The notes under the pieces were generated by a model that was given only the letters and a program-made list of their open reading frames with translations, was not told the origin of the DNA and did not search any database. From sequence record OP688485: a DNA stretch of 64,000 nucleotides, one strand, 5' to 3'. The stretch is from Escherichia phage EP_H11. Shown here in pieces: positions 37,503 to 37,742 of the stretch; within the stretch, counting starts at the first letter, position 1; every line of letters begins with the position of its first letter. The translations under genes and the position numbers were made by a program.

Positions 37503-37742
37503 TTTAGAACTCCTAGTTAAATATATTAGAGTGGGGATGATAATATTTATAGACTAAATGATACATATGGAATAACTTTTATCATATAGCGATAGTCATT
37601 AACCCTCCACCAACATAGATACCATCTGCATCTTGATGCATATCTCTTCATTCTTAATAAAATGAGTTTTGTCTCACGGCTCCAGAAAGGCGCTGGTATT
37701 GTATCATGAAGATACTCAGCTTAGGCTGGTTATATTTATCAC

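Follow-up and report, generated by a model that had tools for sequence, protein, structure and literature searches.

Two tailspike genes lie one behind the other on the late strand of the 64-kb window studied here (the window being the whole stretch of phage DNA that was analysed, 64,000 nucleotides), and an AT-rich gap of 240 bp lies between them. What is this gap, and how did it come to lie between these genes? A sequence-only reading had proposed that it marks a module junction left by recombination and that it may carry an internal promoter for the downstream tailspike, and had pointed to a second gap, of 115 bp, behind that tailspike. In this study, we examined the composition and coding content of the gap, its homologues in other phages, and the origin of the two tailspike genes that flank it.

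Results

The gap is AT-rich and non-coding

The gap covers exactly positions 37503-37742, from the stop codon of the 560-aa gene (TAA, 37745-37743) to the start codon of the 824-aa gene (ATG, 37502-37500), and all genes around it are read from the minus strand. It has a GC content of 0.338, as compared to a window mean of 0.450 (sd 0.034, 240-nt windows). Equally AT-rich 240-nt windows make up 0.017% of all, and the gap is the 240-nt stretch of lowest GC in the window. Thus the spacer is as the sequence-only reading had described it, in its coordinates, in its AT-richness, and in having a tailspike gene on either side. The start of the 824-aa gene is not mis-called, because its first ~20 codons are shared with the orthologue in the related phage IME392 (see below); an in-frame TAA lies just 5' of its ATG. 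The features of the locus are collected in Table 1.

Table 1. Features of the gap and its surroundings in the window
Feature	Position	Strand	Remark
Replaced RBP cassette	33083..42726	-	RBP-type genes of 780, 560, 824 and 472 aa plus parts of neighbours
Upstream tailspike gene, 560 aa	37743..39425	-	chimera: anchor plus foreign head
Post-stop 13 nt GTGATAAATATAA	37730..37742	-	GC 0.15
Degenerate hairpin CCAGC-CTAA-GCTGAG	37715..37729	-	where donors have terminator AAACCCCGCTTCGGCGGGGTTTTTT
Conserved non-coding block	37626..37712	-	homologous to Webervirus/Jedunavirus tailspike/RBP 3' flank
AT-rich leader, ~125 nt	37503..37625	-	GC 0.296 (about 0.30)
Downstream tailspike gene, 824 aa	35028..37502	-	chimera: lineage anchor plus foreign head
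Second spacer, 115 bp	34913..35027	-	GC 0.40; between 824-aa tailspike and 472-aa gene

Gaps on the late strand were first listed between ORFs of at least 100 aa, and then with a threshold of 55 aa, counting stretches of at least 40 nt. The other long late-strand gaps (203-295 bp, normal GC) each contain complete ORFs of 58-95 aa, and the 240-bp gap, which contains no ORF longer than 34 aa, is therefore the longest truly non-coding stretch between the late-strand genes of the window. With the 55-aa threshold, late-strand genes are separated by six non-coding stretches of 40 nt or more. Three of them (39426-39486, 37503-37742 and 34913-35027) are between consecutive genes for receptor-binding proteins (RBPs) and lie inside the replaced RBP cassette described below. 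The 115-bp gap that had been singled out together with the 240-bp gap is real; a search of the phage collection gave no homologue of it, and no terminator-like hairpin was found in it.

No sign of a structured RNA was obtained. Rfam 15 gave no match at E <= 1 in 37400-37850 and none at the gathering threshold in the window, a tRNA search with ARAGORN found no tRNA, and folding of the gap gave z-scores of -0.62 and +0.29 for the two strands, i.e. no structure signal. The repeats within the gap are short AT-rich palindromes only. Read on the coding strand, the gap consists of three parts: a post-stop tail with a hairpin (~30 nt), a conserved block, and the AT-rich leader of the 824-aa gene.

The gap lies in a replaced cassette with chimeric tailspikes

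Megablast identified Escherichia phage vB_EcoM_IME392 (MH719082, 116 kb) as the relative of the window. Positions 42727-64000 are 95.4% identical to IME392 62674-83957, and positions 20000-33082 are 92% identical to IME392 99126-111566. For the stretch between them (33083-42726), no near-DNA match was found in 50,697 phage records or in E. coli genomes. This cassette is 9.6 kb long here, as compared to 15.2 kb for the corresponding segment of IME392. Its gene order is syntenic with IME392, and the similarity of the RBPs in BLASTP searches is confined to their N-terminal parts, except for the 472-aa protein, which resembles AXY86127 of IME392 over nearly its full length (39%). No lineage member besides IME392 was found in IMG/VR, metagenome contigs or GTDB genomes, nor was one found with the anchor of the 824-aa protein as query in a 5.8-billion-protein database, by tblastn against phages, or by exact-protein look-ups. 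The comparison of breakpoints within the lineage is thus one of a single pair, the window and IME392.

The 560-aa protein resembles the IME392 tail-fibre protein AXY86125 in residues 1-59 (49%; BLASTP), and from residue 111 to its C-terminus at residue 559 it is 76% identical to the annotated tailspike gp76 of Escherichia phage 24-32N. This phage belongs to the N4-like genus Gamaleyavirus, and the DNA for the head of the 560-aa protein is 74.6% identical to Gamaleyavirus over 39052-37882. The 824-aa protein matches phrog_19988 'tail spike protein' (E = 1.6e-139) and, weakly, Beta_helix. Its residues 1-204 are an anchor shared only with AXY86126 of IME392 (47.5%), a 'colanic acid-degrading protein', and residues ~235-824 are predicted to be a beta-helix head of the capsule-depolymerase type, 43-53% identical to tailspikes and depolymerases of Klebsiella phages of several morphotypes (LPKP23, K11 and others). 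Judged from these similarities, both tailspikes are chimeras of a lineage-specific N-terminal anchor and a foreign head. The 5' breakpoints of the swaps are inside the genes, past the anchors, at residues ~59-111 of the 560-aa protein and ~204-235 of the 824-aa protein. The 780-aa protein of the same cassette has a similar composition: residues 1-165 are similar to two short IME392 proteins, the protein carries a Tail_spike_N (TSP1/gp66) domain, and its gene is 87% DNA-identical to N4-like Gamaleyavirus phages over 39507-41188.

Detectable nucleotide similarity to IME392 restarts one base 5' of the ATG of the 824-aa gene (37503 to 37177, 68%). The orthologous spacer of IME392 is also non-coding and is 123 bp long, and the two spacers gave no alignment upstream of GGAG. 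IME392 lacks the block described below and differs across the whole gap, which places the breakpoint in the window somewhere between 37882 and 37503.

The middle of the gap is homologous to a flank of Klebsiella phage RBP genes

A sensitive blastn search of the gap against all phage records (2.3 Gb) gave 12 matches, all in Klebsiella phages. The Jedunavirus matches were KpV79 and six RCIP phages (87% over 62 nt, E = 5e-11), and the Webervirus matches were K54lambda2 (77% over 96 nt, E = 2e-10), PKP126 and K63PH128. All 12 are on the strand of the adjacent RBP gene, in intergenic DNA behind a tailspike gene or the short ORF trailing it; the features annotated at the matched sites are a small hypothetical ORF in K54lambda2 and a terminator feature in KpV79. 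We refer to these Webervirus and Jedunavirus phages as donors.

The conserved block measures 87-102 nt and lies on the strand of the 560-aa gene, where it begins 31 nt past the stop codon. We built an nhmmer profile from nine donor regions, leaving the window out. It gave a single match in the 64-kb window (37712-37626, 60.7 bits, E = 1.3e-18), and this alignment begins at the T-run that closes the donor terminator. The same profile gave no match in IME392, the sole other lineage member found. The core of the block is AAAACTCATTTTATTAAGAATGAAGAGATATGCATCAAG. A 27-nt core pattern, at 37667-37641, occurs once in the window and not at all in 100 window shuffles; in IMG/VR and metagenomes it occurs only on contigs of ~48-51 kb from Webervirus or Jedunavirus, and in bacterial genomes there was no match. 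Over 85 nt the window block is 69-87% identical to the donors, and the donors are 61-95% identical among themselves. The window copy thus has both the homology to the block profile and the position behind a same-strand RBP gene that define this family of sequences. Beyond Webervirus, the block is carried by ~8 Jedunavirus records and one IME392-like phage.

The block is a 3' swap boundary in the donor phages

In the donors, a tailspike region is followed by the terminator AAACCCCGCTTCGGCGGGGTTTTTT, ~45 variable nt, and the conserved core AAAACTCATTTTATGAAGAATGAAGAGATACGCATCAAG. In Webervirus, the tailspike gene (or a short gene following it) and the tail-fibre gene J converge, and the block is in the intergenic region that separates them. 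In Jedunavirus KpV79, it is between the RBP pair kpv79_42/43 and the RBP-module genes kpv79_45/46, which are read in the same direction, as is the case in the window. Conservation in the donor intergenic regions is far higher in the 45-nt core than outside it.

It has been reported that divergence in Webervirus is localised at the RBP locus while the backbone is conserved, and that the receptor is switched when RBPs are exchanged by recombination of homologous flanking arms (PMC13463945). For Klebsiella phage RBPs, recombination hotspots have been found in the first 100 residues, i.e. on the 5' side (bioRxiv 10.64898/2026.05.12.724579). Our comparisons place the other end of the exchanged segment at the block. 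KpV79 and the Jedunavirus metagenomic contig OQWI01000066 are 91% identical until 128 nt into the RBP gene, the RBP body and the terminator between the breakpoints are unrelated, and homology is back (86%) at locus position 4005, in the last bases of the annotated terminator (3976-4010), which is the start of the block. In Webervirus, homology between K54lambda2 and PKP126, KpV522 or K63PH128 returns at 3993-3999, at the terminator and block, and in the loci that reach the 5' side (PKP126 and K63PH128) it stops ~470-550 nt into the tailspike gene. There is no relationship among the heads that K54lambda2, PKP126 and KpV79 encode 5' of the block, nor between these and the heads of the window. 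Thus, the block is the conserved 3' boundary of an exchangeable RBP cassette in Webervirus and Jedunavirus.

Some Weberviruses, IME268 and pKP-BS317-1.1, have lost the core, and it is pKP-BS317-1.1 that has the Webervirus head nearest to KpV79_42 (67% aa). The known relatives of the 560-aa head are those of the Gamaleyavirus phages 24-32N and AN24P2, which have the generic terminator and lack the block.

The terminator that precedes the block is degenerate in the window

Between the stop codon of the 560-aa gene and the block, the 13-nt post-stop tail is no more than faintly like the sequence behind Gamaleyavirus tailspike genes, with which it has ATAAC in common, equally far from the stop codon. 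It is followed by a hairpin at the place of the donor terminator. The energy of this hairpin is -5.2 kcal/mol, as compared to -15.6 to -16.7 kcal/mol for the donor terminators. Two of seven stem pairs are broken, leaving a stem of 4 bp and a bulge, and the sequence that follows is TATCTTCA, with no U-tract. An intrinsic (rho-independent) terminator at 37715-37729 was rejected on account of the weak stem and the missing U-tract, and no other minus-strand terminator-like site was found in the gap. The hairpin segment is 50-65% identical to donors, whereas most donors are 75-100% identical among themselves in this segment. The strong rho-independent terminator that precedes the block elsewhere in the family is therefore lacking in the window, which argues for read-through from the 560-aa gene, with no need for re-initiation.

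Discussion

Origin of the gap

We consider it likely that the gap is a composite recombination junction, i.e. a scar of tailspike swapping, rather than a dedicated genetic element. The small IME392 lineage would mount several tailspikes via lineage-specific N-terminal anchors and swap their C-terminal heads with those of other phages. On this view, the gap would be made up of the short 3' tail of a Gamaleyavirus-type head, a copy of a Webervirus/Jedunavirus-type cassette boundary that lacks the terminator, and a leader with a ribosome-binding site. The block may have come into the lineage when cassettes were exchanged earlier on, as a hitch-hiking flank or as the 3' homology arm, conceivably during co-infection of a capsulated enterobacterial host. 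Co-transfer of the block with a cassette, and likewise the direction of transfer, are inferred from the sequence comparisons, in which no single donor with both head and block was found, nor any example of the two moving together between genera. RNA polymerase coming from the 560-aa gene would run on into the 824-aa gene, for which the leader would provide the ribosome-binding site TAGGAG; the leader might also contribute a weak promoter.

Of the module junction proposed earlier, the recombination part stands: the cassette is replaced relative to IME392, and the gap holds what appears to be an imported 3' flank of a Klebsiella phage tailspike. It is to be refined as regards the 5' breakpoints, which are inside genes and not in the gaps. 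Similarity to IME392 returns at 37503, at the edge of the gap, so that the breakpoint in the window falls somewhere between 37882 and 37503, and the block is at the 3' tailspike-swap breakpoint in Webervirus and Jedunavirus.

Is the gap a promoter region?

The gap could instead be mainly an internal promoter region, in which the AT-rich ~125 nt would start a separate transcript for the 824-aa tailspike. Such a role is compatible with the gap being a scar, and we regard it as possible, if unlikely. The gap's having the lowest GC of the window is in keeping with a promoter, and so are several -10-like hexamers and a sigma-70-like site that matches in 9 of 12 positions, the best in the leader (ATGATA-N16-TATCAT, 37585-37558, ~50 nt 5' of the ATG). 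This site is part of a palindrome and scores equally on the opposite strand. Furthermore, sigma-70-like matches in the 8-kb region number 18, and shuffles give 16.5, so promoter-like matches are at chance level. The leader also has one exact copy, at 37551-37544, of TATAAATA, a T4-type late promoter motif, and this copy is the only one of three on the late strand. However, the three copies in 64 kb compare with 4.2 expected, and the motif does not recur upstream of late genes; a T4-like late promoter was thus rejected as a chance match.

IME392 likewise has a non-coding spacer, of 123 bp, before the orthologue of the 824-aa gene, which also speaks for a promoter region. However, these spacers cannot be aligned upstream of GGAG, and among the ten late and RBP-cassette spacers of the window and IME392 no 7-mer is shared by four or more and no 8-mer by three or more. 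The leader as a whole has no homologue at E <= 1 in blastn against phage records. What it does have is the canonical Shine-Dalgarno sequence of the 824-aa gene, TAGGAG at 37515-37510, with 7 nt between it and the ATG. ATCCCCACTC is found at 37538-37529 in the leader, and ATCACCACTC at 35012-35003 in the 115-bp gap; ATCACCACTC or a one-mismatch variant of it is present in the 240-bp gap, the 115-bp gap and the 123-bp gap of IME392, and nowhere else in intergenic DNA.

Elsewhere on the late strand there is one clear terminator-promoter unit (58239-58162), where TTGACA-N18-TAAATT at 58191-58162 comes after a strong terminator. Host-type promoters are therefore used in this phage, at least one of the sigma-70 type on the late strand, which speaks for the possibility of another in the gap. 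But no terminator precedes the gap, and a new promoter is not required for expression of the 824-aa gene.

Is the block itself under selection?

A second alternative, which is rather unlikely in our estimation, is that the 87-nt block is a selected element, either a 3' 'docking' homology arm or a small portable regulatory element such as a promoter or a protein-binding site. The position of the block speaks for this: in three unrelated lineages it is always directly behind an RBP gene or the short ORF trailing it, and its start is where homology returns in the swapped pairs of both Jedunavirus and Webervirus. The conservation of the block points the same way. The window block is as conserved as the donors' blocks are among themselves and the adjoining hairpin is not, so the block could be under selection and functional, and within the donors the 45-nt core stands out from the remaining intergenic DNA. 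A docking role also fits with the experiments in Webervirus in which RBPs were exchanged through recombination of homologous flanks (PMC13463945).

However, conservation within Webervirus is expected from the common backbone, and the carriers outside this genus are few, IME392 not being one of them. The loss of the core in IME268 and pKP-BS317-1.1 and the want of any transfer of head plus block between genera also speak against selection, as does the failure to find a promoter consensus, RNA structure or covariation. The structures that RNAalifold found in nine copies were the terminator and a 6-bp hairpin that is invariant, and neither gave informative covariation. Thus, a docking sequence shared across families by Webervirus siphoviruses, Jedunavirus myoviruses and an IME392-like myovirus, or a portable regulatory element, is doubtful, and we prefer to explain the block as part of a recombination scar.

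Does the gap encode a protein, or is it a meaningless spacer?

It is very improbable that the gap encodes a small protein, be it the 34-aa ORF at 37651-37547 or a remnant of the short donor ORF MKNEEIRIK.... There are ORFs of 31-34 aa on the minus strand, which is the coding strand here, and K54lambda2 has an annotated 43-aa ORF with its start in the core. However, the two longest minus-strand ORFs of the gap have no Shine-Dalgarno sequence and an implausible composition rich in Cys, Trp and Arg (MKRYASRCRWYLCWWRV...). The donor ORF, which begins in the core and also has no Shine-Dalgarno sequence, ranges from 3 to 47 codons, is cut short by premature stops in KpV522, SF_KL2 and JemER55, and in the window has ATT in place of its start ATG. 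No frame, forward or reverse, is open in all nine copies of the block, nor is there a third-position pattern in the substitutions.

Hardly credible at all is that the gap is a meaningless spacer whose similarity to the Klebsiella phage flank comes from chance or low complexity, as the AT-richness of the region and the generic nature of the donor terminator (also found in Yersinia, Salmonella and Gamaleyavirus phages) might suggest, since the significant match is in the non-terminator core with a GC of 0.41, every match is in intergenic DNA behind an RBP gene, and the blastn and profile E-values and the shuffles refute this explanation in practice.

Relation to known systems

The gap as a scar is a further example of a known feature, a mosaic joint, and not a new kind of genetic element. 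Scholl and co-workers are said to have described conserved intergenic sequences that bracket exchangeable tailspike genes in the podophages SP6, K1-5 and K1E, and Clark and co-workers reportedly described 'boundary sequences' at the module joints of lambdoid phages. In both cases the conserved non-coding DNA, beside the SP6/K1-5 tailspikes and at the lambdoid joints, has reportedly been proposed as the site of swapping by homologous recombination. Like these boundaries, the block in the window is short conserved non-coding DNA, and like the SP6/K1-5 element it lies beside a hypervariable receptor-binding gene. The SP6/K1-5 element, however, is upstream of the gene, has a phage promoter within it and is common to close relatives, whereas the block follows the swapped head, lacks any recognisable promoter and is found in different families.

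The closest likeness is to the donors themselves. In Webervirus (Drexlerviridae; K54lambda2, PKP126 and KpV522) and in Jedunavirus KpV79, as in the window, the homologous block is behind an RBP gene and on the RBP strand, and in Jedunavirus the next RBP-module gene also has the same orientation, whereas in Webervirus the next gene is convergent. The donors differ from the window in having a strong terminator (~-16 kcal/mol plus a U-tract) before the block. The host lineage of the window copy, an IME392-like myovirus of 116 kb, is unrelated to either genus.

The flanking tailspikes, with a conserved N-terminal anchor and a foreign head, resemble the RBPs of Klebsiella phages (bioRxiv 10.64898/2026.05.12.724579; PMC13463945), and the heads of the window are shared across morphotypes, with N4-like podophages and with Klebsiella sipho-, podo- and jumbo phages. 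The breakpoints in the Klebsiella RBP studies are on the 5' side, in the coding N-terminus, whereas the feature in the window is on the non-coding 3' side. Tandem tailspike genes on one strand are also known from the branched RBP systems of Ackermannviridae (CBA120 TSP1-4). These differ from the window in phage lineage, anchors and gene set, and we claim no membership.

What is mildly interesting here is that, as far as sequence comparison goes, the same non-coding boundary seems to be common to three unrelated phage lineages. Swapping of RBPs sets the host range of phages and underlies most phage-engineering schemes. The 5' breakpoints of such swaps are well documented, and the 3' side has rarely been examined. 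The present locus suggests that the non-coding DNA flanking a tailspike cassette can travel, or be shared, between unrelated phage families together with tailspike cassettes, and that the usual terminator of this flank is not kept when a cassette lands in the middle of an operon. The block marks the site at which heads can be cut and pasted in Webervirus, in Jedunavirus and, apparently, in IME392-like phages, and it may help to date and trace the mosaic history of a phage lineage that has been sampled very sparsely.

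Results and discussion

Relative to the close relative Escherichia phage vB_EcoM_IME392 (IME392; MH719082), the entire receptor-binding-protein cassette has been replaced, and it occupies 9.6 kb in the window versus 15.2 kb in IME392. The tail-fibre and tail-fibre-assembly gene pairs of IME392 are missing from the window cassette, and three tailspikes with foreign heads stand in their place. The head of the 780-aa tailspike shares 87% DNA identity with N4-like podophages of the genus Gamaleyavirus that infect E. coli and Klebsiella (NAN33P5, K57alpha1.2, and CU10EC), and this identity suggests a fairly recent cross-morphotype transfer whose two breakpoints would both lie within the 780-aa gene. 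The 10-mer ATCACCACTC, or a variant with one mismatch, occurs in the three spacers preceding or following the anchor-bearing tailspike genes of the window and IME392, and is absent from other intergenic DNA.

One generic terminator behind tailspike genes is common to Gamaleyavirus, Webervirus, and Jedunavirus. In the Jedunavirus copies, a 10-bp hairpin lies just 3' of the conserved core of the non-coding block, with the sequence CTGCCTCGGC-CTAC-GCCGGTGCAG in KpV79 and CTACCTCGGC-CTAC-GCCGAGGTAG at the corresponding position of the metagenomic contig OQWI01000066; judged by eye, one compensatory change distinguishes the two stems. The window copy of the block lacks this 10-bp hairpin. The late strand of the window has a single clear terminator-plus-promoter unit, located 5' of gene 57386-58114. 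Its terminator is a hairpin of 12 bp (-21.6 kcal/mol) that ends in a U-tract, and TTGACA-N18-TAAATT comes next. In Escherichia phage 24-32N, the annotated start of gp75 ("tail fiber protein") lies just 5' of a terminator-like hairpin, AAAACCCCGCTTCGGCGGGGTATTTT, which is the generic terminator named above. This start is probably mis-annotated, because a better one, GAGGA-N7-ATGAATAAG, is located 3' of the hairpin.

Within the early/middle gene block, a stretch of 529 nt contains no gene-strand ORF of at least 55 aa. Its GC content is normal (0.47). RNA folding predicts a strong structure that includes a 14-bp hairpin, at -183.5 kcal/mol; shuffled versions gave -160.5 +/- 6.4 kcal/mol (z = -3.61), and none of the 100 folded as well. 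An Rfam search of the stretch gave no match at E <= 1. IME392 is 97.6% identical across it, as compared to 92% in the neighbouring DNA, and carries no annotation there. The stretch is a candidate for a structured non-coding RNA or for an element resembling an intron.

Two small, overlapping ORFs follow the lysis-protein homologue in an arrangement typical of an i-spanin/o-spanin pair, and the 69-aa ORF begins with the lipobox-like MKKLKTTLLVLGSLSLVSCN. Genes for dCTP deaminase and dUTPase are also present in this lineage. IME392 has been listed among phages with a YerA41-like DNA polymerase, the group examined for hypermodified (5hmdU-derived) thymidine (PMC12686479).

Coordinates of the features (in the window unless another genome is named)
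Feature	Position	Strand
Receptor-binding-protein cassette	~33083-42726	
780-aa tailspike head	39507-41188	-
10-mer or one-mismatch variant	35012-35003; 37538-37529; IME392 14557-14566	
Jedunavirus 10-bp hairpin	KpV79 ~4062-4090	
Terminator-plus-promoter unit	58239-58162	-
gp75 start and terminator-like hairpin region	24-32N 3884-3916; Gamaleyavirus AN24P2 ~2850-2890	
Candidate structured stretch	18833-19361	+
Predicted 14-bp hairpin inside it	18866-18915	
76-aa ORF	28309-28079	-
69-aa ORF	28230-28021	-
dCTP deaminase and dUTPase genes	20000-27400	+
dCTP deaminase and dUTPase genes	IME392 104826-107519
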